64,000 nt of DNA from Rhina ancylostomus (Eukaryota), in contig JARFYF010000064.1 of assembly GCA_030265395.1 (NCBI GenBank), positions 232,650 to 296,649 of the forward strand, read 5' to 3'. Shown one piece after another: positions 2,402-51,025 of the stretch. Positions within the stretch are counted from its first letter, which is position 1. The number at the start of each line of letters is the position of its first letter. Below the pieces are notes generated by a model. The model was given only the letters and a program-made list of their open reading frames with translations, made no database searches and was not told where the DNA came from. The position numbers and the translations under genes are program-made.

Positions 2402-2530
2402 TCTGCCTCAATATCAGGTCGAAGACAACGACAAGTGAGTCCGCTGCTGCCATGGCCACCAGATAACGAGTGACGCCTTTTGAGAGACCACATTTTCCCC
2501 GGGACAGGATCGCAATGGTCACAAGGTTCA
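2402..2530 (-). CDS. GPR139/GPR142-like class A GPCR, start of exon 2; the remainder is lost in an assembly gap
   Basis: Pyrimidine tract plus AG (CT at 2531-2532 on +), then phase-1 (V)NLVTIAILSRGKCGLSKGVTRYLVAMAAADSLVVVFDLILRQ, open up to the N run at 2302-2401. Clear paralog of 18184-19070. Exon 1 was not found. Confidence 0.75.
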
Positions 2531-2825
2531 CTGTGAAGAGGGAAATAAACAGTAAATTTACATGGAAAATCAACAGACCCCAGCTGCTCAATCTGTATTA
2601 ACACACAAAGAGCTGGAGGAACTCAAGGGGTCAGGCAGAACCTACAGGTGCAATTGGAAAGTCCAAGCTTCGGCTCGAATCCCTTCATCTGGACTGAGAG
2701 AAAGGGGAAACAGCCAGCATAAAAACGATGGTGTAGCAGCCGGCAGGTGACCTCGGAGAGATTTAGTTGATTCGCTGAGAACAAAAGTTCACTGAGAACA
2801 AAAATAACCGTGTTCCAGAGGGGTT

Positions 2826-3087
2826 TGTCACTGTGTTGCTCAAAGAGAAAGCTCATAGAGAACCCAAATGCGGCACACTGAGACAAGACTGGAGTCAGGA
2901 TACNNNNNNNNNNNNNNNNNNNNNNNNNNNNNNNNNNNNNNNNNNNNNNNNNNNNNNNNNNNNNNNNNNNNNNNNNNNNNNNNNNNNNNNNNNNNNNNNN
3001 NNNTAATCAGTCCAGCATGGAATCCATGTGCTGGACAACAAGGCATTAATGGAGCCAAATTGAGGGCCAGAACTCAGAATTATGACA
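2826..3087. mobile_element. LTR-like element (TGTCA...TGACA) with internal gap; same family as 29715-30052
   Basis: Both gap flanks closely match 29745-29791 and 29978-30052. Terminal TGTCA/TGACA present; flanks GGGTT and GTAAA do not form a TSD. Confidence 0.65.
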
Positions 3088-4215
3088 GTAAAAATAGTGT
3101 ATAGTGGAGTGAGTGGTTAGTAAATCTCAATTTCTGTTTACTTTTCTCTCCCCATATTTACAATTAACCATTACTCACCTGTTGCAGATGCGTCAGCGTG
3201 AAGCTTTGCATGTGCTATGAATGGATTTGAAATCTCACCATTTCTACCGTTCCATCATTGAAATGTCTCACTGTTGACTCGCCGACATGTTGCACAATCT
3301 GGTAACTCAAAATCTCGAAACTCTGTTTGAGGGAAAACGGCTATTAATCGATTTCAAGCTGTCCCGGGAGATTTTTACCTACAAGAAGACACTGCAGAGA
3401 TCACAACGCAGAAGCAGTGAAAGATACACAAACTCCATGGCCCATATGTGCTCAGTGCTGCTAAACCGAACGCTGGCAAAATGGTGCGTTGCAGATGCAG
3501 CGATTGTTATTTGCATGCCCGGCAGAGCCTGATTGGAGATTCCAAAAAGAACCGTTTAGTTTAGGCAGTTAACTTGGATTTTGAAAGTTATTCATCCATG
3601 CGGAACGATACTAAATTAACTAGTGTAACTTCTTTGCGGCCAGCCCTCGATGCCAGAGAAATTTGTTAAGGACGCTTGTCCTGAAAGCACTTTCAAAAGC
3701 AGCATCTGTGCTTTATAACATTAAAACAGTAATTGCACATCTAAAGTTATTTGTTTTCGGAGAACATTCTGGAATGCGATTGCTGGGTGAAAGCTGCTTA
3801 ATAAATGAAGTTTGAACTGCCGAGAGGCGAATATTGCGCATTTAAAACACCTGGAAACTTGTGAACTTTGAGGAGAATGTTCGAGTGTATGCAATTGATA
3901 CGTATTTACTCGCTGGAGTAGAAGAACTAAGTTTCTTTTCGTGCAGCTTCTGTTCCGCCGTCAGGATGTACACATTGATTCAGTTATGTCCTTGGGACAC
4001 TGCCAAGTCTCGTTTAAACATTCACCAGGCTCAATGCCCTTGAAATCTTTGACTCTGTCTTATCCTCATGCGCATGGCGTTTCCTCTGATCAGATGTGAC
4101 CAGTTTATTTCAGGTTCATCATCACCACGACCCTGAAATCGTAAAGTCACCCATCCTCTCGAATTTACTCCTCCAATTTTCTTTTGTGTGTTTCATTCTG
4201 AAGCTGGTGGGGGAC

Positions 4216-5235
4216 ATGTGGACGAATGGCTCTGTCGTCTTGGTTATTATTCCACCGCTCTGAAACAAGTCACTGTTCCGTTGGTAAAACAACCTTATTA
4301 TTCAGTTAAGCTGATTTGAACTCAAATAGTGGAACCACATTTCGGTTTAAATCTCAACACCTCCCTTGCAGGTGGGGATTGCCATTTTGCTGCGAGGAAA
4401 ACGGGGATGTATCAAAATGCATTAGTCGTTTCCTCGTGGCTATGGCGTCGGCAGACGGCCCGGCCTTCATCCTCGGTGTCCTTTTATTGAACACTGGGAA
4501 TAATTATTTCACACTCACATTCTTAACCCTTACCCCAGTGTGCCCTGCCGCGGCGTGGCCACAGAAGCGTCTGTCTGGTTCACGGAGATGTTCAGCTTTG
4601 ATCAATTTACGGCCATGTCTTGTCAGAATCTGACAGTCAAGGACTGCACCGAGGAAACAGCAGCTGTGGTTATAGGTTGCAATGATGGTGCTGAGTTGCA
4701 TAATGAACATTCCCAGATATTTGCTGTTTGACCAGTGGTATATGGTGGACAATGGTCCGCGCGGGTGTGCTTGAATACAGAAGTTCTTTAGTTCATCCAC
4801 GGGGACCGCATTTCACAAGGTCGAACTTACGGTAACAGCTTGTGCTTCTCACTTTCTGTTGCTGTTGTTCAATTCCCTCACTGTCAGACATATTTCCCTG
4901 GCAAGTTGATGCTGCATGGAACTCCGGGGTTTGAGCAGTGGAGAAAACCGGAGCAATCCACAAATGGAGAACTCAAGGGAATCTCTTGCTGTCTTCTTCA
5001 GTCAGTTACATTCCATTGCGGAGCCCACAGTTTGCAGACATCGTAAATTTACATGTTTCAGACGATCAGAACCTCGCAACCAATGACTTTCCCTTCATTG
5101 CATTCATGCTGCCGGTGCCTAGTTGTTGCACTAACGCACACATTAACGTTGTGACTCTCAGTGAATTTTCAGAGAAGATGAAAATCGCGATCATATACCC
5201 CATCAATTTAATTATTAAATTAATAAAATTAAATA
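4216..5235 (+). pseudogene. GPR139-like GPCR pseudogene (candidate exon 1 4216-4283, 88-bp intron, exon 2 from 4372)
   Basis: Split across frames: IAILLRG / SKCISRFLVAMASAD / TPVC / ATEASVWFTEMFSFDQFTAMSCQNLTVKDCTEETAAVVI / SCCTNAHINVVTLSEFSEKMKIAIIYP. Contains frameshifts and stops. GT at 4284 and AG at 4370-4371; upstream YYSTALKQVTVP resembles the exon-1 motif YYPVLxxVGxP. Confidence 0.8.
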
Positions 5236-6000
5236 TTTCAGAACCTTTGATCCGTGAACAAGTGGAATCCTTTTGCTAACTGGACTTTCAATTGTTTGCA
5301 CCAGCAAGTGTCCATTCACATAGTCCCCTATTAATGATTGAAAAGCCGTTGATTTCAATATATTGAGTCATGCATCTGATATTGACATAACATCATGTAT
5401 GTGTTTCAAAATATCAGAAATCGATCATAAGTTTAATCAATAAATAAAAGTTATATGTCGAAGTATATTTGTACTTGTCAAAGTGAAGTAGAATTAACAC
5501 TCTTTTATACTTCTGATCACGAATTCTTTCCTCTCGCACAATGTTCCGGGTGAAAGAAGGAATGAGGCTGCAGTGTCAGAATCAGTGGTCGTCCATGCTC
5601 AAACGGTAATTGAATTATTTCCATCAGTCCAGAACAAATAGAAAATGTAAACCAAATAAATATCGGGAGAAATTATTATTTTTCGTCATTGGCACGTTGG
5701 TATCTGAAATACACCAACTTTACTTCTTCCACGTACAATCGTCTGAATGTAAACCAGAATATTGGCCAGGATGATATGAATGCGCTGACTCCCTCGACGA
5801 GCATCGAACTATATTATCAAAAGGTCACTTGCATCCACATTCTCCCCATTACCACCTTTGATACCAGTTTATCTATCCCAGTGGATTTCTGGCGAGTTTC
5901 ACGTTTGACTTTGTCCGAATTGACACAGGCGCCGATAAATTCAGCCCAGCTGAGATCATTGATCCGAATAGACTCTTGGCCAATTAATACCCACTGATGG

Positions 6001-9000
6001 AGTCATCGTGTGATAAATTCATACAGCATAGAAACAGACCCTTCGGCCCAACTCTCCCATGCCGACCGTTTTGCCTAGTGAGCTAGCCCCATATGCCCGT
6101 GTTTTCACAAAGTCCTCTAAACCTCTTCTGTCCGTGTACTTATCTAGATGTCTTTTAAATATTCCTAATGTGCCCGGCTCAACCACTATTTTTGTCAGCT
6201 GGTTCCAAATAAGCGGCACTCTTTGCGTGAAGAAGCTGCCCCTGATGTCCCTCTTAAATCTCGCAGCTCTGATCTTAAACGTATGTCCTCTCGCTTTCTC
6301 CTCTCTCACTGGGAAAACAGCAACGTGTTTTCACCACTGTCAATGCCCCTCATGATCGTATAAAAGTCAATCTGGTCATCTACCAATCTCGAAAGTTCCA
6401 GGTCAGAACGTCATCGTTTCCACGACGTCTCTCTCCCAAGTCTAAGCAACATCCTGGTGAATGTTTTCTGCACTCTTTCTAGTGTAATAACATCTTTCCT
6501 AAAACAAGGTGACCAAAACTGTACGCAATAATCCGAGTGCTGCATCACCAATGTCTTGGATAACTGCAACATAACTTTCCTACTCCTATATTCAATGCCT
6601 TGACTGATGAAAGCCAGCATTCTTCACCACTCTGCCTGTCTGTAACGCCGTTTTATGCGGACTAGTCACTGGCACTCCGAGGTCACTCTGTTCCAGAACA
6701 CACCCTGGTTCCCTTCCATTCAATCTGTAAGTCCTAGCCTGGTTGGATCTCCCAATATGCAACACTTCACATTAATCTGGACTGAAAGCCACTTTCCAAT
6801 CTTCAGCCCACATACTTAGTTGATCAAGAGCTCCCTGTATTTTTTCATGACCGTCTACACTTTCTACAACACCACATATTTTGGTATAATTCATGAGCTT
6901 ACTAACCAGCCTTGCATATTCACATTCAAACAATTGATATAAATTATTAACAGCAAAGATCCCAGTACCGACCGCTTTGGCACACCACTAGGCACGGGTT
7001 TCCAGTCCGTGAAACCACCCTACACCATCACTTTGGACTTCCTACCACTGAGCTAATTAAGAATTAAATCCGTGAGCTCCTCCTGGAATATAGGCGAACA
7101 AAGCTTTCAGACTCACTGCCATGACGCACCTTGTCAAAGGCCTTCCTAACGTCCATATAGCCAACATCGATTGCCCTACCCTCATCTACCCTCTTGGTTA
7201 CCTCGTCGAAGAGCTGCAAGAGATTTTTCAGACATGACTTACCACATTAAAAGCAATGCTGATGTTCTGGAATCAGACACTGTCTCTGCAGATGTTGATA
7301 GATTCTGTCCGTCATCATATCCTCCAACAAATTACCCACCACATATGTCATATTCACCGGCCTGGAGTTTTCTGACTTGTTTTTGCTGCGCTTTGTAAAC
7401 AATGGTGCAACATTAGCCATTTCCCAGTCCTCCGGATCCTCACCTGCAGCCAGTGATGGAGCTATATCCCTGCAAGGCCCTCCAAAATTTCTTCTCTCGC
7501 TTCCCACACGATCCAAGAATGCACCAGGTCAGCCCTTTGGAAGTGAACCACCTCAATGCCCTTTAAGGCCTCCAGTACCTTCTCCCTTCTAATTCGCATG
7601 TGGTTCAATATATCTTCCCTCATTTTCCCCGTTTCCTCCATCTTTTCCTCTACAGTAAAAACTGAAGAGAAATATTCGTTCAAAATCTCACCCATTTGCT
7701 TTGGGTTCACATACAAACAACCATGCTGTCCTTCAAAGGGACCTATTCTCTCCTTCGACTCCCCTTTACTTATAATTTACCTGTGGATTCTCTTGAGATT
7801 TTGCCTCATCTTTCTTTCCAGATCTCACTAATATCCTATTTCTGCGCTGTTAACCTCTATAGTAAGTGCACCCCTGCACTTGCAGTAATCATGAGATTCA
7901 CTGGTCCTTAATTGCTTGTGGGCAGTGTATGCCTCCCTCTATTTTTCTTAACTCGACCCTGAACAACTCTAGTAAACCAGATTACTTAAACCTTCCAGCC
8001 TTGCTCTTCCACTTACCAGGAATATGCAGGCCCTGACTCTTGACATCCTACTTCCACTTGACAGACGTTACGTTCCCTGCAAACAATCTCGCCCAGTCAA
8101 CCACTGCAAGATCCCGCCTAATGGTTCCAAAGTTTGCGCTGCCCCAGTTCAGGACCTAAACCTGTGGACCAGTCGTATCCTTCTCTATAATTCTTTTAAA
8201 GTTAATGGAATTATTGTCACTGGACCCCACGTGCTCAAGGACAGAAACCTCCGTCACCTTCTCCACCTTATTCCCCTGGAGGAGGTGCAGTTTTGCACCC
8301 TGTCAAGCAGATCCCTCGAAATATTGACAAAGAAGGCTTTCTTGGACACCTTTTCCAATTTCCATTCCGTCCAGCCTTATCCATTCTGGTCCCCAGTCAA
8401 TGTGAGGGATGTTAAATTCTCGCACTAATACTGTCCTATTGTGTTTAGATTTGACTGCAATCTCTCTACATATCTGACCTTCCAATTCCTGCTGAAATTG
8501 GTGTTCCATCATACAACCTCGTAAGAGTTACCATCCCCTTTCTCTTTCGAAGTTCTAACCATATAGCCTCACCACATGATCTCCCATGAATATCCTTTCT
8601 AATGGCAGTTGTTGTGTCCTCTTTCATCAGGATGCCAAGTCCCGCTCCTCTCTTACCTGCACCTTTGTCACACCAGCAGTATTTATACACGGGAATATTG
8701 AGCTGCGGGCCGTGTCTTCCCTCAGCCATGTTTGGCATATGGCAACGTCATCCCTTTTCCGAGAGCCAATCTACGCACTGAATTCATCCACCTTGCTTGC
8801 CAATCCTCTTGCATTGAATTAAATGCAGTATAAGCCAATGGCCGTTCATCTCCCATTACCATCGTCTTGTCTATCCTGACGACTAAGTTTGCTCTCATTG
8901 GCTGTAGTATTGTCTCCTGATTTCTCATCAGCCGCTATGCTGCCGTCCTATAACTCTCGTTTAAACCTTCCCGACTGCTACTAACAGATTTCCCAGCCAG

Positions 9001-9770
9001 GATATTGGTCGCCTACCAATGCAGGTGCAACCCGTCTCTCCTGTACAGCTCAACCCTACAACAGAAGAAATGCCAATGATCCAAGAACTTGAATCCCTGG
9101 TCCCCTGAATGAGCTCTTCTGCAACATATTCATCTGAGCTGCCGTTCTATTTCTACCCTCTCTAGCGTGTGGCACTGGGGGTAATCCAGAAATTACTACA
9201 CTCGAAGTCCTGCGGTTTAGGTTGTTTCCTGAATGCCTGTGTTCACTATGAAGGATCTCATCCCTCTTGCTACCTGCATTGTTCCTGTCAAGAAGCACCA
9301 CGACAGCGGTCTGCTCCCTCTTCCCTGAGAATGGTCTGCAGCTGCTCCGAGACGTCCCTGACCCTGAGACCCGCGAGGGAGCACACCATCCTGGAGCCAC
9401 TTCTTCGGCCACAGAATCTCCTGTCTGTCCCGTGAACTATGGCGTCTCCTTTCACATCCGCCCTATCTGAACTCTCCCTTACCCGCTGACTCTCAGAGCC
9501 TCTATCAACGCCACCGATTTGGTTACTGCTGCTGCTGTGTCCACAGAGGTCTTCCTCCCAGCAGTATCCAAAGGGGTACACTTGTTGCTGAGGGTAGCAG
9601 CCACATGGGGACCTTGCACTCTCCGATATTTCCCCTTACTTCTGGTTTTCACCCAACTTATCTGCAGCCTGCACCTTAGGTGTCATAACCTCACTAAATC
9701 TCTTGTCTGTGATGTCCGCACCCCGGATGATCCTAAATACATCCAACTCGAGCTCCAGTTCCTTATTGCG
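6001..9770 (-). mobile_element. Long, degenerate CR1 LINE (ORF1 coiled-coil/SGNH esterase, ORF2 APE and RT, 3' tail)
   Basis: ELELELDVFRIIR and GTDRRFCGRRSGSRMVC (ORF1); FNIPHIDW and EAIWLELR (APE); PEDWEMANVAPLF, DYCVQFWSP and RGHTFKI...FFTQRV (RT and C-terminus); reversed CR1 tail at about 6020-6065. Many stops and frameshifts. Confidence 0.9.
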
Positions 9771-11430: not shown

Positions 11431-11439
11431 CTAAGACAC

Positions 11440-11582
11440 AAGTCTTGGAATACGTGAGGAAACCGGAATACACGGGGAAAATCCACGATATTATAGGGAT
11501 AAAGAGCAATCTCCACGCAGACGGCACCCAAGGTTCGCTGGAACAGCAAGACAACGGCCCCAGTATCAGTGCCACTGTGCGG
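11440..11582 (-). mobile_element. Degraded V-SINE fragment
   Basis: GAGGAAACCGGAATACACGGGGAAAATCCACG is the reverse of the V-SINE core seen at 18000-18030. Confidence 0.55.
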
Positions 11583-24680: not shown

Positions 24681-27600
24681 ATTCTCTGTGAAGGCCGATC
24701 ATTTGTTCAGAATATTCCGGTTGCTCAGATGTACTAGTGATTGGTTAAATACACTCTTATACAGGTGATGAAGATTCCACTGAGACCATGAGTATAAGCA
24801 CCTGCTTAGTCACATTAGCCACAGCCACTGAACAAACATTGAACTGTAATCAATTTTTACCCACTATGTCACTGTGCAATGAAATCCGCTCCTCGAGGAA
24901 TATTGTACAGAATTAATATTACTTATTAACCTCTTCAGAAGGGAATGGTGCAAATTCTATTGGTATGATAACGTTCCAGCTGCTTAAGCTCAATTTAACT
25001 TGGGAGCATTATCATTTAAAACATGGGCAATCACATCATATGAGATTAATCATAAAACTAAGAATGGCAGGTGAAATGAAGTAAAAGCCTTCCTGGATGC
25101 AGAGCATTTCTATTGATTTTACGGCGAGAAGCGGTAGTCATATGCCGGCGAGATTTAAGATAATAAATCTTTACTCTATTTACTGATCTCAAAATCCATC
25201 AATAGACTCACACAGTTATTAGAACCTCTCTTGAGGAACACAGAGTGTCTCGTTCACAAAAATTAGCTAGAGTTTGCAGCTAGGCAGGGAAAAACAATTT
25301 TCAGCATAGAAATGGATCTTTCGGAGCGATGTATCCGATGGTCTCCCAAGGAAAGAGCAAATCACCTGATATCGCATACTTCACGTTTGTTGCAGCATCC
25401 TGAATGTTTTCACGTTTACCCATTAACATCCATTACTTCAGCTGAAATTTTGTCAGGCCATTTCTTCTTATCTCGTGACATTTTGCCTCATTTACTTAAG
25501 GTGGTCCACCTTTAGAATATCACCTATTTAATAATTGAATCGTATTGAAATCACCAAAACAGAAGTCCATAAAATGAAGATGTATTGTTCCGGCACTGTT
25601 CTCGTGTCTGAGAAATTCCACTCCCTGATTACCTCAACGTGAATCACGGCCCTGGTGACTACTTTAAACGCCTGTAATTCACTCTGAACAACAATCATAC
25701 CGTTTGAAACTACGCTACCTCATTGTCAAGAGTGAAGTGTGAACTCTTTCGCCCGAATGAACAGCATTCCTTTAATGAAAGGCCACTATGTGTCCGGTCC
25801 AAGTGAATATTCCTCGCAATTTAACTATTGTTGTCGTTCCAGACAATTTGCAGTTAATGCCTTTCATTTTAAATAATTTCTCACTGGAGCCACGCCCTGA
25901 CAAGAATTGAACAGAGGTTTAGGATGGAAACCAAGCAGAAATATATGCGGCACATATTACATGATATTGTGAGATTGCCGTTGTGTGCCTCCATGTGCCT
26001 GAAATTTGAATGGACTGTTTCCTGACAGTATCTTTCAGAGGTTGAACCGGTCTGTCTGCCGCCGTCCATTGTTTGAGAGGAAGCAGGGCTGTCTCTGACT
26101 CAACAAGATAGGACAGAACTATGCAAGAAGGCCGTGCTGAGATTTTGAAGATTTTCGTCCTTCTGGTACAGAGCTGAGTTTGTCATGGTAATTGTTCTTG
26201 TAGTATAATTTGGAGTGTTTTCGCTCGTTAAGAGTGTGCAGAACAGGCAGCTCAATATTCCGGGGTACCGACTATCCTAATGTGGTATAAGACAAAACGA
26301 GAAATGCCATTCTTGATTGGGGGGTAACGTCACTGCAGTACCTCGAAAGAATATCGTGAGGAGAATGTCCAGCCAGGGCACATCGTTAGCATTGGGAATA
26401 GTATAGTCGGCATAGATGCGATGCGCCGATGAGGCTGTTTCTCTCTGACGCTGTAAATCTCGTTGGAGAGACTCATAGAGCGGGACATAACTACCAAATA
26501 AAGGAAAGATTATAAAAAAAAGACAAAGAGAAATTTACTCTCTCAGCGGGTAGTGAATCTCCGACTGCGGTGGACGCCAGAACATTAGATATTTATATAA
26601 AGTGGAGACGTATAAACATTTGAAACATCAAGGAATTGAAGTTTGTGGAACTGGCAAAAGAAGGCGATTTCAAGCCAACACGTCAGCCATGTTGACATTG
26701 AATGATGGGACTGGCTTGAGGGCCCTGGTTGACAAATGTTTCTATCTTTCTGTGTTCTTGTGTTCCTTGTACATTTTCGGTGTGTCAACAGCACTGGGAG
26801 AAGTGGTGACTCTGATGGAGATCAATACCATCTGACGTTTAGTTGGCGAATACTGCACATCTCTGTTTGAACGATGCAGATCTCGTTCTTTTCCATGCCT
26901 GTACTTAAAGTGCTCAGTGTAGGAGCTTCACGGCTCTATGTCCACTGTGTTCTATGTGGTTATTGGTGTTTTGCCAGGCTGTGAGTGAATGCAACAACGC
27001 TGAATGTTGAAACTCAGACGATCTTCCTATCACAAACGTTGAGGGGTGATAGTTACCCGGAACTTTTCTGGACAGTCTCCGGAACGAGTTTTCAAACTAC
27101 TCAACAATGTTTGGCTGCTGTGGAGGGAACACCAGCTGACAGAGTGTTGAGAGATTGCTGCTTATTACGAGAGTTTAAGAAGTGTTCACTACGTTGCTGA
27201 TGCTTAGAAGAGGGGGGCCAGTCCAATAGTTGTTCAGCAAACTTAGTGAACGACAGCTTCCATCGTTGTCCAGGTGTGTATGGTGTGGATGATTTGAGAG
27301 AGCTTCGTGATATTCGCGTTTTGGTCAGACGAATAGGTTAGGATCCACAGTGTTTGCTGTGGCTTTCAGGCACTTGTTTGAAGACAGCGTCAGTCGTTGT
27401 CCAGCTGTGAGTGTTGTGCGTGAACTGGAAGAGTTTGGATGTATTTACGGTTGGGACTGAGTCACAGGCCGGGATCCACAGTGTATTCTATGCTAATGTG
27501 CTCAGCCAGTTCTTATAAGAATATAGATAGTGTTACGTACCAGCAACAACAGAAACGCACGGAGACATGTATGTGTTAAAAACTACTTTATTAATAACTA

Positions 27601-28715: not shown

Positions 28716-28768
<53 letters not shown>
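28716..28768. repeat. (CT)n microsatellite
   Basis: Directly visible. Confidence 0.95.
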
Positions 28769-28770
<2 letters not shown>

Positions 28771-33181: not shown

Positions 33182-34088
33182 TTACTTGCGCGATATACAC
33201 TGCCTAGGCATCTTGAAAAGCAGATTGACGGGGGAGAGCACCGCAATCTTCAGCTGCTCTCTGAACTTTGTCTTGGTCACTCCGCAAATAAAGGTGTTTG
33301 TGTAGCAGCTAAAAAGCTGAGTCACAGAACCAACAAACTGAGCTTGAAAAAGCCTATAGACGTTTCCAGGTTTGTGTAGAGACATCGCATGAGAATGAAG
33401 ACCACAGTGGTTGTGGCCCAGCAGAGAAGGAAACTCGCCGACAGGGTGAACAGCAGAATGATGGATTGTCTCCGGCTTTCCATCTCCGCATCTCGCTGTT
33501 TCCCTAAATTCCCCCTCAGCCCCCTGCGTACTCTGCTCGCAGCCAGAATCTTTCTGACGGTCAGAGCATTGAAGTTCAAAATAAGGAAGAAAGGAATCAA
33601 CGGGTTTAACAGACGGTCCACCCAGTAAAACCCCTCAAAATACCGACATAGCAAGAGCGGGTCGACCAAAACACACCCCATCACCCTCACCAGTAATGTT
33701 GCGGTTTCCATATACAGGAAATAGAAATGGATATCCTTAAAACAGAACCCGATACATATTGCTCCAATAACCAATGCCGCAATTTGGGGGTGCNNNNNNN
33801 NNNNNNNNNNNNNNNNNNNNNNNNNNNNNNNNNNNNNNNNNNNNNNNNNNNNNNNNNNNNNNNNNNNNNNNNNNNNNNNNNNNNNNNNNNNNNNNNNNNN
33901 NNNNNNNNNNNNNNNNNNNNNNNNNNNNNNNNNNNNNNNNNNNNNNNNNNNNNNNNNNNNNNNNNNNNNNNNNNNNNNNNNNNNNNNNNNNNNNNNNNNN
34001 NNNNNNNCCATTGCCACCAGATAGCGAGTGATACATTTGGAGAGACCGCAGTTTCCTCGACAGAGAATGACGAGCTCAATAAGGTTAA
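33182..34088 (-). pseudogene. GPR139-like GPCR exon 2, probable pseudogene (214-N gap, apparent 1-nt deletions near 33783 and 33355)
   Basis: Acceptor at 34089-34090, then VNLIELVILCRGNCGLSKCITRYLVAM...NALTVRKILAASRVRRGLRG...EMESRRQSIILLFTLSASFLLCW. TM7 and helix 8 (SCYTNTFICGVTKTKFREQLK) lie in another frame. Confidence 0.85.
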
Positions 34089-39099: not shown

Positions 39100-39706
39100 A
39101 ACTTTTAAAGAAACAGGTTATCTGGGTAATACACCGCAATCTTCAGCGTCTCTCTGAATTTAGTCTGGATCATTCCGTAAATATAGGTGTTCGTGCAGCA
39201 GCGGAACAGCTGAGTCACAGATCCCGAAAACTGTGCCCCAAAAGCCGGACATCCGGTAACAAGTCTGTGCAGAGACATCGGATGAGAATGAAGACCAAAG
39301 TGGTTGTCGCTCAGCTGAGAAGGAAACTCGCCGACAAGGTGGAAAACAGAATGACGGATTGTCGCCGTCTCTCAATCTCCGTATCTCGCTGTTCCTCGAA
39401 ATATCTCTGATCCCTGATCACCCTTAGGACTCTGCTCGCCGCCATGATCTGTCTTAAGGGCAGAGTGTTGAGGGTCAAAATGAGGAGAAAGGAAGCCGCA
39501 GGTTTAATTGAGGTCTTCCAAAAAAAACCACTCAAACGTTTCCGACACAGGAACCAAGGATCGAGTGAAACACGGCCAATTGCCGTGCTGCTGAGAAGTA
39601 AACTCCTTATACAGGAAATAAAACTGAACATTCGATAAACAGAACGTGAAAGATATTGTGCCAATAACCATACCCGCAATTTTTCGGGTGCAGTATTTTG
39701 TTTAAA
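39100..39706 (-). pseudogene. GPR139-like GPCR pseudogene, TM4-TM7 part, cut by an LTR
   Basis: LNTLPLRQIMAASRVLRVIRDQ...EIERRRQSVILFSTLSASFLLS*, then SCCTNTYIYGMIQTKFRETLK; stops and frameshifts. Confidence 0.85.
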
Positions 39707-39707
39707 A

Positions 39708-40038
39708 AGTAGCACAATTAAGGAAAGAGTTAAATTAGCCAAAGGTCATTTCTGATTCCTGCTCAGTATGCAGTTGTGTGTAACACAAAATGCTATCAGC
39801 TTGGACTGTGGGAATGTTTCGAGAACTTGTGGAAGTCAGACGCACATCCTTGTGATTAGATACTGGTGAAGAAAGTTTCCTTATTTACAGACCAGTTGCC
39901 TCTGTTTCCATGTAAGTTGTTCAGGCCGATGGTCGTGAGTAAAAAGAGGATGCAGGCTGGTATCACGAAGGAATTGAAGAGTGGTGGGGTGAAGTTTATG
40001 TTAAGTTTTTGAGGCTTATAAAAGGGGGCATAGTCTTT
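39708..40038 (+). mobile_element. 5' half of an LTR inserted in the GPCR (same insertion as 48026-48674)
   Basis: Aligns to 48026-48358; TATAAAAGGGGGC lies just before the gap. Confidence 0.75.
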
Positions 40039-40559
40039 NNNNNNNNNNNNNNNNNNNNNNNNNNNNNNNNNNNNNNNNNNNNNNNNNNNNNNNNNNNNNN
40101 NNNNNNNNNNNNNNNNNNNNNNNNNNNNNNNNNNNNNNGACACAAAACATGCAGCATTTCAGTTGTATTCCAAGAGGCGCACTCAGGGGAACTGCAAGGT
40201 GGATTATGCAAGTTTACGGATTTGTCCCATACATGGCAGAAATGATATCTCATTTCGGAGGAGAAAATGAAGAATTTTTACATGCCGTCAGTTTTGGAAA
40301 TGCTGCCTTCGTCAGGGATCCGGGTGATTCTTTACCCCAGTCACTGAATGCAGCTGATAAGGACAAGGAGATATGAAAATTTATTGAAATGCAGGCCCCA
40401 GATGTCTCACTGCAATAACTTCAGGACCTTCAGACACTACTGCTGGATTGTTTCGTGCAATTTCGGTCACAGAAGCTGAAATATAGAAAATATTTCCAAC
40501 AAGGATACACCAGACTGATTCCCTGCCTCCTTGAAATTATCAATGCAACTGGACGCAAC

Positions 40560-41662: not shown

Positions 41663-42135
41663 CATCATCACTAAATTGCTATCAGAGACGGGTCTAAATT
41701 GGTTGAAGGTTCACCCCTTAGCATTATAACACATGACAATTACCCTCCAATTGGCCACCGGGGTATAGGCTGCCGAAATCGCCTATGGACGTCCCGGAAC
41801 AACCCCATGGACGCTGACACGCAGCTCCCACCCAGGTTGACCTTAATATCATGGGGCATGAACTACATAGGTATTTCACACAACTTACGTCCTCTTTAAA
41901 GTTTCTTCATTCACAAGTGGAGAGCTCCTTTAAACCACTGGAAGGACAGAATGCGGAATTGCCTGGTCGGGTAATCGGAGATTCGGTACTGATACGCGAT
42001 TGGGAGCACCCTAAACTCGGACTTCGGTGGAATGGCCCCATCCAGATACTGCTCCAAAATACTAAAGCCGTGGAAGTACAGGAACGCTGGATTCATCTGA
42101 GTGACTGTAAGCCATGGCCACCGGAAGAAAGATGA
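41663..42135 (+). mobile_element. Endogenous retrovirus (gamma/epsilon-like) integrase C-terminal remnant
   Basis: TKLLSETGLNWLKVHPLAL*...TGV*AAEIAYGRP, then GDSVLIRDWEHPKLGLRWNGPIQILLQNTKAVEVQERWIHLSDCK (W-x-GP...WIH-x-S motif). Confidence 0.85.
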
Positions 42136-43753
42136 TATTTCTTAGATTCGGACTCCTGAACATTACTAGTACTCTTGCGTGGGCATTAGGGGATAATTTG
42201 TTTTACAAAGTACACATGCAGTTACATTGGAATCGCACCGTTTCCTACCCCTTGGCAGAATGGTGAAAAGCCTTTTTGTAGCCACACCAAGCTGGAGCCC
42301 CAGGGCCCTCTTAAAGTATGAACATTCAAAAACAGATTGTATTGGGCAGACGGGAACTTACGGGAGGGTGCTGCCGGGTAAATTCTTGCAAAAATAGTAA
42401 CAGGTCCTGTGGCACAACCAACAAGCAGTTCTGCTCCCGCTGCTTCACAGGTAAAGGATGGGGTTTGTTCGATAGCCATCGTACATCACACGACATCATG
42501 TGCAACCACTACTTGTACAGAGAAAAAATGTGTATTTAAGGGGGAGGTGTTTTCGGTGTGAATGAGCTGCTACTATGTGTGTTACGTTACTTGCAGGAGA
42601 GCGATGGGTTTGTGGGGAAGGGAACGGAACCCATGTGAAATTATCTGTTGTATCTTTAGAATGGCTAACCGGGGAGAATTACCTGAGAGAGCATGGGAGA
42701 AATGTTGTTGGAATCTCTAGGTATTCTCAACTGCCCAGTCGACAGCAATCGGGTAATGTAACCTGTTACCGGGCTAAGGAAGTGTATGTGTTCCTCTTTA
42801 ATGGTACTTACACTACCGCTACCCCCACTCTGCCAGCCTGGCTTGCAATGGGAACGATCGGGTCGGTCACGGTCCCGTGATACCAGAAGGCTCATGTCCG
42901 ACGAAGATTTGTGATACAGTCGGTTAAGTGAGGAGTTCTGTGAGGACAGGCGGGATCTTCTTACGTTGGGATCTCCCTTATCGTCGTTAAGCTATGGGTT
43001 TCTGAGTATTTCTGAGTACTCTGGCGGGGGGGGGCGGGCGTGGTTCAGCAGCAATTGTAGCCGCAATAAAACAGAACTACCATATTTGTGGACTGGCCGC
43101 GCTGGGTAACAGTACCATAAATGGCCTGGAGGCACTGAACCGGGACCTGGCGGAGCCTCGAATTTTATGCCCGGCAGACCTGGTATGCTGTGGACTACCA
43201 GTTGTCTCAGAAAGGAGGAGTATGTGCCATAGTAGGGGAAAATGTGTCACCAATGTAAGAGTTGAGTCCAACAACATTTTCCATGCCATTCAGGACATTC
43301 AGAAGCAAGTAGATAGCTTTAGGCAGAGATTTACAGGAGGGACGGATTGGTTGCTGTGGATACTAGGAGGATCGTGGGCATCATACCTGCTGCATGGAAC
43401 AGTGGGGCTAATCGTTATGACAGTAGTGCGCTGTGTGGTGCGAGGCCGCCCAACTAGCTGTTGCAAGGTCCTTATCAATAAACTATCGACCCCGTTCTCG
43501 GCGCCACTCCAGGTTATCATTAAATGATAACAGGAGGAATGAGGACGTAAAGGGTTAAAAACCGTCACCATGCCAATAGCTGATAGGAAAAAAAGATACC
43601 TCGCAAGCAAGAGCACGCAAGCCTCTGACAATGGATAAGGTGCTAATTACTCTTTCCGGGACCTTGATCAATCCCGTTATCCTGCGCAACAGGAGTACTG
43701 GGTGCAATAAACAACGAGTAGGAAGCTTGTTCTTCACAATAAGGGGTGATAAC
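42136..43753 (+). mobile_element. Endogenous retrovirus env remnant with candidate polypurine tract
   Basis: Heptad GLAALGNSTINGLEALNRDL; immunosuppressive-domain-like QTWYAVDYQLSQKGGVCAIVGE/KCVT (43175-43253, frameshifted); anchor WLLWILGGSWASYLLHGTVGLIVMTVV; purine-rich AAGGGGTGATAAC before TGT at 43754. Confidence 0.8.
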
Positions 43754-43799
43754 TGTCTTTGAACTTTTTGGGAGGGGGCGAAGACAGAATGTCCGGTGT

Positions 43800-44666
43800 G
43801 ATGTCCGGTCCTTGTTTATGTTTTCCACTTCCTGAGGCCAATACATTGTGGAGGTCGACAACTCGGATTCCTGGGTGGGGGCGGTCCTCTCTCAATGCTC
43901 CAGTGTGTATCAGAGACTGCACCCCTGTGCCTTTTTTTCTCGCTGGTTGTCCCCAGCTGAACGCACCTATGACGTGGAGAACAGGGAGTTGCTAGCAGTC
44001 AAGCTTGCATTGGAGGAGTGGGGGCACTGGCGAGAGGGAGCAGAACACCCGTTCATCGTTTGGACAGACCATCAGAAACTGGATACGGACTGCAAAACGC
44101 CTGAATTCCCGTCAAGCACGGTGGGCATTATTCTTGGCAGGTTCCGGTTTACACTAACATATTGTCCTGGGTCCAAGAACGGGAAGCCCGATGCTCTCTC
44201 CCGGCAATGCTCTACTGAGGAGGACCATCCTGACCCCAAGACTATCCTTCCTCAGTCCTGTGTGGTGGCGGCCCTCACCTAGGAGATTGAGGCTGCAGTG
44301 AAGAGGGCCCAACGGACCCAACCTGACACAGACAATGAGCTACCCAACCGCCTTTTTGTACCAGCGTCTGTGCGGTCTCAAGTTCTGCAGTGGGGACATT
44401 CTTCTCGTTTTGCCTGTCATCCGGGGATTGATAAGACTCTCTTCCTCCTGAAGAAACACTTCTGGTGGCCCTCCATGGACGCGGATACTCGTTCCTTTGT
44501 ATCTGCCTGTACAGGCTGCGCCCGTGGAAATGCCTCCCACCGACCACCTGCTGGAGTGCTTCGCCCCTTACCTGTACCTAGCCGTCCATGGTCCCATATC
44601 GCCCTGGATTTTTTCACGGAACTGCACCCTGCTCACGGAAACACCGTTGTCCTCACCATTGTGGAT
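43800..44666 (+). mobile_element. Ty3/Gypsy (Sushi-like) pol fragment: RNase H and integrase N-terminus
   Basis: [67 protein letters not shown]...[20 protein letters not shown]; frameshift and stop present. Confidence 0.92.
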
Positions 44667-47419
44667 GCTGGGACGGCAACACCAATCGTGCTGTTGTCAC
44701 GCTAATCCTTGTAATGATAAGACATGGCTTGAGCACCACTGGTGGCGGTAGTAGGCTGTTTTCATGTCAAAGCACCACGTGACCAGTGTTGATTTTACTC
44801 CAAGTTTGCGGGTGGAGTCTTCACTCCTGCACAAATGATGGCGAAGCTAACCGAACAATGGAATTATCACTGCCTTGTTTTATTTTGTGTAACTCATCTT
44901 TAATACGATTCTCCTTTACTTAGTTCAGATGGTCTTGCTGCACATGATATATTAACGTTAATAGCGCCAACCTTTAAAGTTTGCCCTGTTACCAAAGTCT
45001 TTTTATGCAATGCGAGTTGCAATATAGTGATCGTGGATTATAGACCTGATCCTTCATCGCTGTTCTCATATGCAGTTCCAGAGATAGAGAAACAATGAAA
45101 TATAATATCAACGTCACGTTTTCACGGACACTGTCCAGGTACCGAGACCTCAAAGATGTTTAGAGACACCAGATGATGCTCCAAAAGTTATAAGCTCCTA
45201 AATAGGGGTGTTCCGAGCACGAAACGTCGAAAAAGCATCAGGGCATGTTCAGCCATCCATTACTGAAGTATATGGCTTACCTTACTAAAATTTATGAACA
45301 ATACGCTGTTCATCTTCAGACAGAGAAGTATGCAGACATGGGGTTGTCTCTTTGAAAACTCTGGAAAATTAGACTACAGCATGAATAGTGCGCGGAATTC
45401 GGCCACCATAATATCGGAACAATGTGAAGGTCCAAGGGAACACGCGGATGAGAGCACCGGAATATTTCCGCGGCGTTTGATTTCAGAAACAAGTCTCTAT
45501 TGCAGAAGCCGGGGTTATTCTACTGGAGCAAAGAAAGCTGCGGAGAGATCAGAAACAGGTGGACAGGATAAATGACGGTTTTAAGGTTAGAATGGGTTCC
45601 CATCCGTAGATGGGTCGAACACCAGAGACACAGATTGAAAGTGATGGAAAAATCATCGAGGGTGGTGTGAGAGGAAATCAGCATCATACTCAGAGAGTGC
45701 TTGTGATCGGGAACTCACGATCTCTGAGGATGGTGGAAAAGGAGGCAATCTAGACGGACAGTCAATTCCACTGTCACGTGCGAAGAAGTTGCAGGGCTGC
45801 GGTAACAGAGTAGCGAAAGAAGGGAAATAGTTATTTTTTCAGGAAGTCGACGTGGACTCAGAAGGCTTTAATCTTCATTCCTCAGCTGTTACGATTTCAC
45901 TGCCGTAAGAGAAGAGGCGAAGCAACGCTGTCGAATCTGGGAAACATTTAAAGCTGTGAACTGAGACAAGAAGCATAAACATGTGGGAATGAACCAATCG
46001 GTTTTCAGGCAATAAAATGTCTTGCCCATCGAATGTTTATCCACGGTGCTAGAAGTTGTTCAGGGTTGTTCACTTTTGTTCAGGTTACTGTACATGAACG
46101 GTTCTTTAACGGCAGGTGTGATATGTGCCACAATAATAATAAGTGAGGCTTTTGAACATTAAAATCATGGTATCGGGCTGGTGATGCAGGTCCCTGAGTG
46201 CCAGTGTCGAGCTGTCGGGGCTATTAGCTAATAAGCATCTTTCTGAAGCTCGTAATTCAATAATACTGTCTTTGGCCGCGCAGTTGCGCCGTCACTGAGT
46301 TTAAAATGCAAAAACCCCAGATGACGTGCCAGGTTTCCCAGACGTGTTTAAGTCAATGGAGCAGCAGTAGCCGAACCTCGTACAGTCATCAGACAATTTA
46401 CCTCATGTCTCACTGCAGCGAATCTCTGCATCAGTCTTTTGACGGAACATTAATTTAGGCTGGAATATACAGAACTAATTACGATGTTGTTGCCATTACT
46501 GAGACTTGGTTGCGTGAGGGAAAGGACTGGCAGACCAACGTTCCTGAGTTTCTTTGCCTCACACGTGATAAGGAGGGATAAAAAACGTGGATGGGTTGCA
46601 CTACTGTTGAAGAAAAATATCACAGCAGTAATCAGAGAGGAGACACTGGGAGGTTCATCCATGGAGACCATTTAGATGGAGCTCTGAAATAAGAAATGTG
46701 CAATTATATTGGCCCACCATTAGCCACCGAGAGGTGGAGGAATAGAAATGGAGACAGGTGTTGGAAAAGTCCAGAAATAAAGGGGTTGTCACAGAGGGAG
46801 ACTTTAACTTCCGCAGTATTGATTGGAACTTCCTCTGTACAATAAGATGAAATGGGACAGGATTTCTTTAGTGCATCTAAGAGGGGTCCTTAAGAGGCAC
46901 AATTTCTTTTATTATTATGACCACAGCTGCTGAATCAGTTCCTAACTTGACGATATTATAAAATCGTACAAATGACTGGGAGTTAACCTTCTATTGCTCA
47001 GCTGGTCAAGCCACATTTGAAATCTCCTGGGGAGAATGTGGAGGGTGGTCATATTGTAATCATTTGTATATACATTTAATATACAGCGGATTGCAAGCAC
47101 TGCCATCCGATAATCATGAAACGAGTTATGAACTACAGCGAAAATAAGTACTCTGTGTTTTATGGGCATCGATCTTATTAGAATTAGAGGGTGTGTGTCG
47201 ATATTGATTACTATGCACGTTTACTTGAAAACAACTCCCAACCTGAGATTAATCCTTGAATTTAAATGTAGACAATGAAGGAACAGGGAGGCTGAGGATT
47301 GTTATTCCAACGGGTTTAATATCAGTTTATAGTGAAGCATCTGCATCGATAAATATGAATATTTTCCTGCTCTCTTCAAAATTCGGAAAATTATTGGACA
47401 TTTTGATCCGTGCATAAAG

Positions 47420-49092
47420 TTTAAACGAACAGGTTATCCGGGTAAAACATCACAATCTTCAGCAGCTCTCTGAATTTAGTCTGGATCATTCCGTCAATAT
47501 AGGTGTTCGTGCAGCAGCGGAAAAGCTAAGTCACAGATCCAGAAAACTGTGCCCCCAAAAGCCGGACATACGTTAACGGGCCTGTGCAGAGACATCGGAT
47601 GAGAATGAAGACCAACGTGGTTGTCGCCCATCTGAGAAAGAAACTCGCCGACAAGGTGGAGAACAGAATGACAGATTGTCGCCGGCTCTCAATCTCCGCA
47701 TCTAGTTGTTCCTCGAAAATTCTCTGATCCCTGAGCACCCTTCGGACTCTGCTCGCCACCATGATATGTCTGAAGGTCAGAGTGTTGAGGGTCAAAATGA
47801 GGAGAAAGGGAAGCCGCAGGTTTAATTGAGGTCTACCAGAAAAAACCCTCAAACGTTTCCGATACAGGAACCGTGGATCGAGTGAAACGCGGCCAGTTTG
47901 CTGTGCTGCTGAGAAGTAATCTCCTTATACAGAAAATAAAACGGAACATTCCTTAAGCAGAACGTGAAACATATTGTGCCAATAAACATACCCGCAATTT
48001 TTCGGGTGCAGTATTTTGTTTAAAAAGTAGCTCAATTAAGGAAAGAGTTAAATTAGCCAAAGGTCATTTCTGAATCCTGCTTAGTATGTGTAGTGGTGTG
48101 CAATACAAAATGCTGTCAGCTTGGACTGTGGGAATATTTCGAGAATTTGTGGAAGTACAGGCGCACATCCTTGAGATTAGATACTGGTGAAGAAAGTGTC
48201 CGTCTTTACAGATCTGTTGTCTCTGTTTCCATGTAAGTTGTTCATGCCGATGGTCGTGAATGATAAGAGGGTGTAGGTCGGTATCACGAAGGAATTGAAA
48301 AGTGCTGGGGTGAAGTTTATGTTAAGTTTTTGAGGCTTATAAAAGGGGGCATATTCTTTTTTGCAAACCGGGACATTCCGTTAGGGCGGCTCACGACTGA
48401 TACCAAGACGCTGACAGAAGGCTGCGTGAAAGGCTGTCACGCACCTGAGTTTCCCCGCATTTATGTAGATCAGATTATTCATTGGTTTATAAGTATTAAT
48501 TTGCTTCCTTCTGTATTTTTATTCTTCTTTCTTTCTGAATTTTATTCTTCATATAACGAATAAAGTAGTTTCTAGAATCTTTTACACGCGTCCTGTACCT
48601 CCTTTGTTTGTGACTACCTCTTGCTGCTGAATCAGAAAAGAACAATGAACGGATTTTAAAATATTTTCGTTACAGCCTAGCGAATGGCCACAAAGCGATC
48701 GAAAGTAAAGGCTACCGTCAGCCACACGGAACCATCTAAAGCCACGTGACACAGGACTTAGTGGACAGAACTGAGCGTTGCTCAGGAATCCGTACAGTAC
48801 GACTGTTTAACCCAGCCGGTAGAACAGGACTTCGATAATCACCACCATTAGATCCGCATCAGCTATCTCCACCAGATAGAGAGTGTTTTATTTGTTGAGA
48901 CTGCAGTTTCCTCGTCAGAAAATAAAGATTGCCACCAGGGTAGCTGTGGTAAAAGAAATGAAGCTTAAAATTGTCATAAATTATAAAATGCAATTGAAAT
49001 ACGTTTGTAAAAACAGTTCTAACTTTTACCCTGGTATCCCATCTTTGGCCTTTGAGTGACTACACAACTGGAATAACGGTGGATATATTCAT
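47420..49092 (-). pseudogene. GPR139-like GPCR pseudogene interrupted by an LTR just after the DRF motif
   Basis: Degenerate candidate exon 1 (MNISTVIPVV*...GIP, about 49031-49092); acceptor at 48944-48945; LVAIFIF*RGNCSLNK*...ADLMVVII...LTVAFTFDRFVAIR*; LTR; then YCTRKIAG...LNTLTFRHIMVASRVRR...ESRRQSVILFSTLSASFFLRW. Confidence 0.88.
48026..48674 (+). mobile_element. Solo LTR of about 650 bp
   Basis: Interrupts the GPCR frame. TATAAAA at 48338, AATAAA at 48559, ends ...TTCGTTACA. No 5' TG or TSD is recognisable. Confidence 0.75.
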
Positions 49093-49684
49093 TTACACCA
49101 CTGTTTTGAAGCTCTTTACAGCGACATCTTACACAGTGAACTTATTACATCAGCCGCGGGAAATCTTAGGAATGTGGAGAAAATCAATCAATATTAATAC
49201 GTTGTCTGAGAGTCACATGATGGCATGACGAGAGTAGCGGCCACAGACGTCTTCGGGAGATCGCTGTGTCAACGATGTCGTCAACATGAGATGTCCGTTT
49301 AACACCCCAGACCAATGAGAAAACTGCACCCTCCAAGTTTTCATTGCAGAGCTGGTCTTTACTGAGTACTTCGTCTCGCAGGCAGTGGGGATGAGAAATG
49401 TTCCAAACTGAGTTTAATTGAAAATGCTGCTGGAACTATTTTACAATGGTAAGTGTTTTAAACAACAAAGGAATAATGTAACTTTCGTGAGCTGGATAGT
49501 AGAACGGACGACTGAGTTAAACCCCAAGAAGTAGACAACATGATGAATTCGGGAAGGAAGATTACTAATGGCATTGTCTATCCGNNNNNNNNNNNNNNNN
49601 NNNNNNNNNNNNNNNNNNNNNNNNNNNNNNNNNNNNNNNNNNNNNNNNNNNNNNNNNNNNNNNNNNNNNNNNNNNNNNNNNNNN

Positions 49685-51025
49685 GAAGGAATTGAAGAGT
49701 GGTGGGGTGAAGTTTATGTTAAGTTTTTGAGGCTTATAAAAGGGGGCATATTCTTTTTTTGCAAACCGGGACATTCCGTTAGGGCGGCTCACGACTGGTA
49801 CTAAGATGCAGACAGAAGGTTGCGTGAAAGGCTGTCGCGCACCTGAGTTTCACCGAATTTACGAAGATCAGATTATCCTTTGGTTGATAAGTATTAATTT
49901 GCTTCCTTCTGCATTTTAAGTATTCTTCTTTCTTTCTGAATTTTATTCTTCATTTCACGAATAAAGTAGTTTCTGGACTCTTTAATACGCTTACTGTACC
50001 TCCTTTGTGACTACCTCTTGCTGCTGAATCAGAAAAGAATAATGAACGGATTTTAAATATATTTTCGTTACAGCCTAGCAAATGGCTCAAAACTATCGAA
50101 AGTAAAGGCAATCGTCAGCCACATGGAACCATCTGTGGCGTGACACAGGACGTAGTGGACAAGCCAGAACTGAGCGTTGCGCAGGAGTCCGTACAGTACG
50201 ACTGTTTCACCCAGCCGGTAGAACAGGATTTCGATAATCACCAGCATTAGATCCGCAGCAGTCATCTCCACCAGATAGAGAGTGCTTTATTTGTTGAGAC
50301 TGTAGTGTCCTCGGCAGAACATAAAGATCGCCACCAGGTCAGCTGTGGTAAAAGAAATGAAGCTTAAAATTGCCAGAAATTATAAAATGCAATTGAAATA
50401 CGTTTGTAAAAACAGTTCTAACTTTTCTCCTGGTGTCCACCTTTGGCCTTTGAGTGACGACACAACTGGAATAACGGTAAATATATTCATTTACGCCGCT
50501 CCTTTGAAGCTCTTAACAGCGACATCTTACACATCTTCCAGTGGACTTATTACATCAGCGGCGGGAAATCACGGAATTATGGTGGTGATAATCAATCAAT
50601 ATTGTTGTCAATCAATAACGTTGTCTGAGAAACACATGATGGCATAACAAGAGTAGCGCCACAGACGTCTTCGGGAGATCACTGTGACAACGATGTCATC
50701 AACATGATATGTACACCCGTTAACACCCCAGACCGATGAGAAAACTGCACCCTAGAAGTATTCATTGCAGAGCTGATATTCACTGAGTACTTCGTCTCGC
50801 AGGCAGTGGGAATGAGAAATGTTCCAAACTGACTGTAATTGAAAATGCTGCTGGAACAATTATACAATGATAAGTGTTTTAAACAACAAAGGAATAATGT
50901 AACTTTAGTCAGCTAATAGTAGAACGGATGACTGAGTTAAACCCTGAGAAGTAGACAACATGATGAATTCGGGAAGGAAGATTACGAATGGCATTGTCTA
51001 TCCGACTACAACAGATATTTTCACA
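49685..51025 (+). repeat. Segmental duplication copy C (3' half of the LTR 49685-50072, GPCR 5' part, upstream flank)
   Basis: Collinear with 48288-49584. Confidence 0.92.
50073..50490 (-). pseudogene. GPR139-like GPCR pseudogene, TM1-TM3 part
   Basis: Acceptor at 50343-50344; EMTAADLMLVIIEILFYRLGE...ATDGSMWLTIAFTFD, ending at the same LTR junction as copy B. Confidence 0.82.

Follow-up and report, generated by a model that had tools for sequence, protein, structure and literature searches.

The 64,000-nucleotide stretch of Rhina ancylostomus DNA analyzed here (the window) contains one cluster of a receptor family of cartilaginous fishes whose hundreds of members are two-exon class A G protein-coupled receptors (GPCRs). 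The anatomy of the family and the composition of its promoters suggest that it may well be an external chemosensory, probably olfactory, repertoire of these animals. The family apparently arose from a single-copy vertebrate orphan receptor that is related to, but distinct from, GPR139 and GPR142.

A receptor gene cluster with one intact copy

A tblastn search of the window with family proteins detected eight exon-2 pieces within 2402-50490 and, outside this range, a ninth at 56618-56850. The first eight belong to six loci, of which one is intact and the other five are disabled or incomplete:

2402..2530, minus strand: 5' part of exon 2 (TM1-TM2), ending at the N gap 2302-2401
4372..5230, plus strand: old pseudogene, its entire exon 2 present but interrupted by several stops and frameshifts
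18184..19070, minus strand: exon 2 of the intact gene, from the second half of TM1 to helix 8 and the stop
19071..24610, minus strand: 5.5-kb phase-1 intron of the intact gene, immediately before N1.50, in position and phase as in GPR139
24611..24680, minus strand: exon 1 of the intact gene (70 nt), with ATG, short N-terminus, first half of TM1 and phase-1 GT donor
24681..24900, minus strand: proximal promoter of the intact gene, predicted from sequence
24761-24756, minus strand: predicted TATA-like box of the intact gene
24838-24832, minus strand: predicted forkhead-type element of the intact gene
24899-24890, minus strand: predicted imperfect O/E-like palindrome of the intact gene, with 2 mismatches
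33182..34088, minus strand: probable pseudogene of a divergent subfamily, with a 214-N gap over TM2-TM3 and a frameshift before TM7
39100..39730, minus strand: 3' half of pseudogene twin B
47415..48943, minus strand: pseudogene twin A, with an insertion of ~650 bp after TM3 and stops in common with twin B
50070..50342, minus strand: 5' half of pseudogene twin B, parted from the 3' half by scaffolding gaps
56618..56850, plus strand: TM6-TM7 fragment of a further family member, beyond the range of the original prediction

The original prediction counted at least seven loci in the range; self-alignment of the window reduces this number to six. Specifically, 36269-40038 matches 44664-48359, and 48288-49584 matches 49685-51004, at 89-91% identity, so that a single pseudogene, interrupted by the gaps at 40039 and 49585, accounts for both the piece at 39.1-39.7 kb and that at 50.1-50.3 kb. 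Twins A and B have stops and the insertion point in common; their duplication came after inactivation. For the 33-kb copy, the exon-1 matrix scan of the window found no exon 1, and its frameshift is reproduced without an indel by a separately assembled public contig (run X1, record 1), possibly from the same sample. The predicted inventory of one intact copy, one undetermined copy (the 2.4-kb one, which runs into the N gap) and otherwise disabled copies was borne out, and the reported receptor motifs are present in the window copies, degenerate in the broken ones. There are no tRNA or Rfam matches in the window.

The two exons of the intact gene (24680-24611 and 19070-18184) splice to exactly the 318 amino acids originally proposed, exon 1 being the sole strong match of the exon-1 matrix in the window. 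A single-exon reading of this gene was rejected, given that the upstream ATG is out of frame and exon 1 was located. The product matches Pfam 7tm_1 (E=4e-23), and its AlphaFold model is a seven-transmembrane fold with an ECL2 hairpin (pLDDT 86.5), for which Foldseek returns NTSR1, TRHR and CCKAR (TM ~0.7). The nearest solved folds are thus peptide receptors, and the language-model neighbors are FMRFamide-type neuropeptide receptors. The Pfam match, the model, the Foldseek results and the motif counts given below identify the window receptor and its family as class A (rhodopsin-like) GPCRs. No match to OR, TAAR, V1R, V2R or T2R profiles was obtained at Pfam E 0.01, only 7tm_1 and a sub-threshold Srx.

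Family size, conserved signaling face and variable pocket

At least 448 distinct family loci are present in the R. ancylostomus genome (one non-family row was removed from the census), and 312 of these have a near-full, stop-free exon 2. The tandem-clustered, birth-and-death GPCR family of cartilaginous fishes that had been proposed thus holds genome-wide, with many copies rather than few. None of the 157 fetched full-length copies has a near-identical neighbor (>=98% identity), so the copies are not alleles, and allelic inflation of the counts is ruled out for this set. One 17-nt family motif occurs 627 times in the genome, compared with 62 for the reversed control, a figure that does not scale to a gene total; likewise, the contig depths added up over the conserved TM1-TM2 motif (5847 vs ~6) do not represent a copy number. 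Exon 1 has 150 matches in the genome, many of them followed by an exon 2 at a distance of ~1-6 kb, which rules out a single exon 1 serving many exons 2. The 73 proteins listed for the exon-junction region of a relative include none from Logan; in the clusters examined, there are four Logan-only proteins without names. Most family loci lie in clusters near scaffold ends: on scaffolds longer than 9 Mb, 80 of the 104 loci are no more than 1 Mb away from an end, where 11 would be expected.

With a median identity of 50% among copies, the family retains N1.50, D2.50, D3.49, R3.50, N7.49 and Y7.53 each in 156-157 of 157 genes. The pocket positions 3.28-3.36, 5x44, 6.51, 7.39 and 7.43 carry 2.7-3.3 bits of variability (109 genes), and the 157 genes display 148 distinct 12-site pocket signatures; the divergence of extracellular faces noted between the window copies extends to the entire family. 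Across 47 paralogs, omega is 0.28 overall, 0.37 in the outer half compared to 0.19 in the inner half, and 0.09-0.15 in ICL1 and the inner halves of TM2, TM3, TM6 and TM7, so that the intact copies evolve under purifying selection rather than neutrally. Positive selection on the family is weak: in site models that do not control for gene conversion, M2a does not improve on M1a (p=0.65), M8 is preferred over M7 (p=0.0008) and M8a (p=0.011), and M8 assigns omega of 1.29 to 2.8% of sites. Four sites in ECL1/ECL2 score above 0.9 for positive selection. Large size, clustering, a hypervariable pocket and turnover by birth and death together make up an anatomy of the chemosensory type.

Promoter composition

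We compared 70 family promoters with 70 introns and with shuffled sequences, using the O/E consensus of PMC3247239 (Table 1). The exact consensus occurs in 9 of 70 promoters and in one of 70 introns; with one mismatch, it is found in 36 promoters and 8 introns (shuffle maximum, 12). The promoter counts are not independent, as 30 of these 36 matches come from two subfamilies. The O/E sites are enriched in two of four subfamilies and, in two, occupy fixed places; in the C68 group, a single promoter of 10 has one, and the intact gene of the window falls short of the one-mismatch cut. TATA-like elements are present in 44 of 70 promoters vs 4 of 70. O/E and TATA sites, as in the olfactory receptor families, are found in part of the family's promoters. 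The most widely shared element is the forkhead consensus (50 of 70 promoters; shuffle maximum, 16). Homeodomain cores show a modest enrichment (26 promoters, 15 introns; shuffle maximum, 20), and the O/E-type half-site came fourth rather than first in a de novo scan for palindromes. The forkhead element is not a reported feature of odorant-receptor promoters: neither 'fox' nor 'forkhead' appears in the text of PMC3247239 on these promoters.

Candidate functions of the family

If the family is a chemosensory repertoire, each gene would be driven by a TATA promoter of its own, in sensory neurons with active O/E-type and forkhead factors. The receptors would each bind a different water-borne ligand, likely a small peptide or an amino-acid-like compound in view of the peptide-receptor fold and of the amphibian sister gene, whose pocket has stayed similar to that of GPR139 (see below). 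A common G-protein interface would carry the signal for all receptors, and duplication in the end-of-chromosome clusters would continually renew the receptor set. More tentatively, this could be a fifth olfactory receptor family, which, with several hundred genes, would amount to about five times all known chemoreceptors of cartilaginous fishes together. Such a family would go back to a peptide-type orphan GPCR that was recruited before the chimaera lineage separated from that of sharks and rays, with one or a few receptors per microvillous olfactory neuron, and would replace the bony-vertebrate OR repertoire. The family resembles OR, TAAR, V1R/ORA and V2R/OlfC in its clusters, birth and death, variable pocket and conserved signaling face, but differs from these olfactory families by the coding intron in TM1 and the peptide-receptor ancestry, and is known here from genome sequence.

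Rather unlikely, in our assessment, is an immune repertoire deployed on leukocytes, such as B cells or granulocytes, for the recognition of microbial or host peptides. The birth-and-death, end-of-chromosome, pocket-diversified anatomy fits immune families too, the nearest solved folds are peptide receptors, and the O/E (EBF) and forkhead sites correspond to a B-cell regulatory pair, these factors also being drivers of B-cell genes. However, the positive selection observed is weaker than a host-pathogen race would lead one to expect, and the subfamilies are old, common to rays and sharks. Such a repertoire would work like the formyl-peptide receptor and MRGPR expansions, in which one animal group built a sensory or immune receptor set out of a non-olfactory class A lineage, but the present family has a different ancestry, is far larger and predates the chimaera-elasmobranch split.

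Internal or reproductive sensing of nutrients or endogenous peptides, in gut endocrine cells, ionocytes, brain, or gonad and sperm, would extend the metabolite-sensing role of GPR142 and GPR139, and is suggested by the wide sharing of the forkhead element, by the FMRFamide-type neighbors, and by the amphibian sister gene, which retains F3.33, W6.48, N7.39 and a basic residue at 6.51, like GPR139. We consider this reading unlikely because pockets that diverge across hundreds of genes, together with many pseudogenes, are hardly explained by a fixed set of endogenous ligands.

A further reading, in which subtelomeric segmental duplication amplified a small gene in a largely neutral way and left most copies without function, is improbable and, for the open-frame copies, largely refuted. 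The excess of loci near scaffold ends, the duplication of an already dead copy and the five damaged or incomplete loci of six in the window would fit such a process, but the low omega of the intracellular-side segments, the near-invariant signaling residues and the promoter elements held at fixed places do not.

The context for a chemosensory function is what is known of cartilaginous fishes. Published work puts the known chemosensory repertoire of the catshark at 65 genes (PMC6368271), credits cartilaginous fishes, large as their nose is, with ~65 chemoreceptor genes (PMC6368271, PMC10116579), reports that the catshark V2R co-receptor v2r1 labels olfactory neurons at only moderate frequency (PMC10116579), and describes these animals as GPCR-poor (PMC8455134). 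No GPCR is among the top 50 genes of a catshark brain-plus-olfactory library (PMC11979771, section 11), an absence that weighs little because sparse receptors are not expected there. For window positions 18000-20500, no RNA run was listed, the single run matched being of unstated kind. No description of the family was found in the literature searched outside subscription journals, including text look-ups in PMC11979771, PMC8455134, PMC10620051, PMC6368271 and PMC10116579; family terms have no match in the supplements of PMC8455134 (13 of 24 files), PMC10115646 and PMC11589584, as far as these were accessible. Whatever its function, the family overturns the GPCR-poor count with its more than 300 open-frame receptors, which the automatic name 'probable GPR139' had concealed. 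An olfactory role would resolve the small-repertoire puzzle of shark smell and mean that a chemoreceptor family arose independently one more time in vertebrates; an immune role would give the oldest animals with adaptive immunity a large receptor set that is new.

Phylogenetic position relative to GPR139 and GPR142

The canonical GPR139 and GPR142 are single-copy genes elsewhere in the same genome (the GPR139 ortholog is at G000:C112). Family members are 18-26% identical to this GPR139, and a tree joining the family with GPR139/142 is rejected (AU p=0.021), so that a reading of the copies as GPR139/142 duplicates is not supported. Neither is L-Trp/L-Phe sensing. According to PMC5430874, GPR139 requires F3x33, H5x43, W6x48, N7x38 and R6x51 for its Trp/Phe responses. 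In the family, these residues are mostly replaced, being kept in 38, 20, 149, 16 (position 7.39) and 2 of 157 genes, respectively, with at most three of the five in any gene and the W alone in the window gene. Tandem GPR139 duplicates that still sense L-Trp or L-Phe are therefore very improbable, even though human GPR139 is the best sequence match among solved structures (E 8e-12), the intron position is identical, and databases label the copies 'probable GPR139'.

The family does fall within the GPR139/142/GPR210-like orphan group, as judged by a common clade and the phase-1 intron before N1.50, although the node linking GPR139/142 to the rest of the group has modest support of 86/48 with few outgroups. 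GPR139 and GPR142 are the family's closest relatives by sequence among named receptors and share with it the class A fold, the short N-terminus and this intron, but form a separate lineage, an amphioxus protein falling on the family's side (99/95). Moreover, GPR139 lacks the TM3 cysteine C3.25 that the family keeps in 154 of 157 genes, and GPR139 and GPR142 have one copy each, compared with hundreds in the family, where the Trp/Phe pocket is not kept.

The sister group of the family is a single-copy orphan of amphibians and sturgeon (for example, XP_069092602 and XP_031757816; support 100/100), with a single gene in each of 20 amphibian species and one sturgeon, in contrast to the hundreds of the family. 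A Callorhinchus member is nested inside the family, which is older than the chimaera-elasmobranch split; its radiation took place in the chimaera as well as in sharks and rays. The 'GPR210A/B' orphans of Rinne et al. 2019 are a closely related group (PMC6504862); the word 'shark' is absent from the main text of that paper. Two more single-copy lineages of the orphan group are present in the R. ancylostomus genome (C53 and C2), with relatives in coelacanth, teleost, crocodile, frog and lamprey.

Receptor loci in the window

Six-frame motif scans and tblastn of the window detected eight pieces of exon 2, the main coding exon (second half of TM1 to the stop), within 2402-50490; one more such piece lies at 56.6-56.85 kb. 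Given the segmental duplication revealed by self-alignment (89-91% identity) and the common stops, four of these pieces represent two twin pseudogenes, one divided by scaffold gaps. Thus, this range holds six loci rather than the seven or more of the original prediction, whose picture of a single intact copy among mostly disabled ones was retained (one intact, one gap-cut, four disabled). The 33-kb copy carries a frameshift that recurs in a public contig, possibly of the same sample.

24680-24611, minus strand: exon 1 of the intact gene (N-terminus matrix match, phase-1 donor)
18184-19095, minus strand: the sole long open frame, containing exon 2 of the intact gene (18184-19070)
47415-48943, minus strand: twin A, pseudogene
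50070-50342 and 39100-39730, minus strand: 5' and 3' halves of twin B
about 55243-55300, minus strand: degenerate, weak exon-1-like stretch (score 8.9), 4.9 kb upstream of twin B

The long frame lacks an in-frame start and opens at a splice acceptor. Splicing it to exon 1, located with a matrix built on 37 database N-termini, reproduced the predicted 318-aa product, free of internal stops. The exon-1-like stretch may be the dead first exon of twin B.

The intact product belongs to the class A GPCRs: it matches Pfam 7tm_1, its AlphaFold model (pLDDT 86.5) shows seven helices followed by helix 8 and has an ECL2 hairpin, and its closest folds are NTSR1, TRHR and CCKAR. It matched 2046 database proteins at E 1e-10 or better; among the best 120, 114 were from sharks or rays, every one named 'probable/putative GPR139', and 6 were nameless. 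The nearest among the matches listed was a stingray protein (83%), so the source of the window is probably a ray. Database proteins P0185, P0353, P0354 and P0126 are members that carry different automatic names (vasopressin V2 receptor-like, GPR15-like, GPR39-like and uncharacterized), so counts by name will undercount the family.

Family size and genome layout

The genome contains at least 448 family loci, of which 312 are near-full without a stop, 87 have a stop and 49 are partial (originally 449 and 313, before removal of one non-family row). These loci are the union of seven protein searches, each scoring the best 119-150 of 1490-3679 candidates; three were entered whole, and four contributed mostly-new rows only (60 of 131, 21 of 119, 33 of 125 and 23 of 150). 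Rows known to lie outside the family were excluded and the flags kept as in the search tables; 448 and 312 are lower bounds for loci scored on their main exon, and some stop flags may be intronic. A 17-nt family motif occurs 627 times in the genome versus 62 for the reversed control. Among 157 full-length exon 2s retrieved, every nearest neighbour was below 98% identity, and the proteins share a median identity of 50%. On the 19 scaffolds longer than 9 Mb, the terminal 1 Mb at either end holds 80 of 104 loci, where 11 were expected, a bias to which Hi-C scaffolding may contribute; four more clusters lie 0.4-5.3 Mb from an end.

The expansion is real and apparently undescribed. The genes are present in RefSeq under the automatic name; no paper on the expansion was found in the literature searched, although a description or tissue data may exist in subscription papers or supplements, and the parts of PMC11979771, PMC10620051 and PMC3247230 examined contain nothing on the family. 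Published work describes GPCRs as scarce in cartilaginous fishes (PMC8455134) and counts 65 chemoreceptor genes in catshark (PMC6368271).

Descent and separation from GPR139 and GPR142

The GPR139-alignment pattern had a single genome match, a highly conserved GPR139. The GPR142 orthologue is locus L033 (G000:C50:8.90 Mb, G000 being this genome; 54%), where the match shows two stops and spans an N run. Two more orphan GPCRs of this group, each single-copy, L047 (G000:C53:27.24 Mb) and L129 (G000:C2:82.06 Mb), have relatives in coelacanth, teleost, crocodile, frog and lamprey. Orphans of this kind in fish and coelacanth are called GPR210A/B by Rinne et al. (PMC6504862), the main text of which lacks the word 'shark'.

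Distant relatives were found by searching 50% representatives. One of these, a salamander protein used as query in a word-index-limited search, retrieved 25 proteins: one from each of 20 amphibian species, one from a sturgeon and four members from chondrichthyans. Amniotes and teleosts were absent from this result. In the IQ-TREE phylogeny (41 rows), with which FastTree on 145 rows agrees, the family forms one clade (97/91) with a chimaera member nested within; its sister is the amphibian/sturgeon gene (100/100), and GPR139 and GPR142 fall outside a wider group in which amphioxus is included (99/95). Forcing the family together with GPR139/142 was 41 log units worse (AU p=0.021), with few, long-branched outgroups. 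A phase-1 intron ahead of N1.50 is common to the family, GPR139 and their group.

Receptor anatomy and selection

With generic residue numbers counted outward from anchor residues, signalling residues are near-invariant, and variability is greatest at pocket positions. Among the residues that GPR139 requires for Trp/Phe responses (PMC5430874), W6.48 alone is general in the family; the amphibian sister gene retains three and has a basic 6.51. That the family consists of GPR139 copies sensing Trp/Phe is thus the least credible reading. A codon model written for this analysis, which reproduced the IQ-TREE likelihood, gave an omega of 0.28 overall for 47 paralogues of the window gene's subfamily (0.37 for the outer half and 0.19 for the inner). 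The signal of positive selection is weak and varies by test, in a model with fixed branch ratios and no recombination. Neutral amplification, set beside these values, appears improbable.

Promoters

Every gene has its own exon 1. We compared 70 upstream regions, from four subfamilies and three other genes, with introns as control. The top de novo EM element, on a fixed strand about 145-175 bases ahead of the ATG and present in 49 of the 70 as against 13 of 70 introns, fits the forkhead consensus (PMC8034652), and TATA-like boxes are present in 44 of the 70. The EBF-type O/E consensus of odorant-receptor promoters (PMC3247239) is enriched chiefly in two subfamilies, at differing fixed places; homeodomain cores are weakly enriched. 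Because these sites are inherited among members, they amount to two to four independent events. A TGATGT-like second common element, at about -135 to -170, is found in 40 of the 70 promoters against 3 of 70 introns (loci L232-L261 and others).

Proposed function

We give about even chances to the family being an external chemosensory repertoire, in which many pockets would sit over one signalling face and duplication would renew the set. EBF and forkhead factors are active in B cells too, and an immune receptor repertoire is possible but unlikely; internal or reproductive sensing seems slightly less likely still. For an external chemosensory repertoire, the read-out would probably be in microvillous olfactory neurons, a cell type proposed by inference, like the G protein and the ligands. 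In catshark these neurons are all Go/TRPC2-positive, and labelling for the V2R co-receptor is moderate, at 5.9 cells per mm, which is an absolute figure rather than a share of all neurons (PMC10116579).

Candidate mobile-element remnants around the receptor loci

20357-21586 and 57393-58643: repeat fragments, 74% identical, LINE-like by eye; one within the intron of the intact gene
41818-43527, plus strand: remains of a retrovirus-like element, in fragments; one frame matches the MLV-type integrase C-terminal domain weakly and below cutoff (PF18697, E 3e-4), and after it come broken frames, envelope-like by eye, without a Pfam match
43836-44705, plus strand: remnant of an LTR-retrotransposon pol, in which an RNase H-like domain and an integrase zinc-binding domain are recognised, immediately ahead of the duplicated block
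59534-60358, plus strand: broken frame, hAT/ZBED-type DNA transposase-like by eye, without a Pfam match
62033-63295, near the window end: endonuclease and L1-ORF1-like frames
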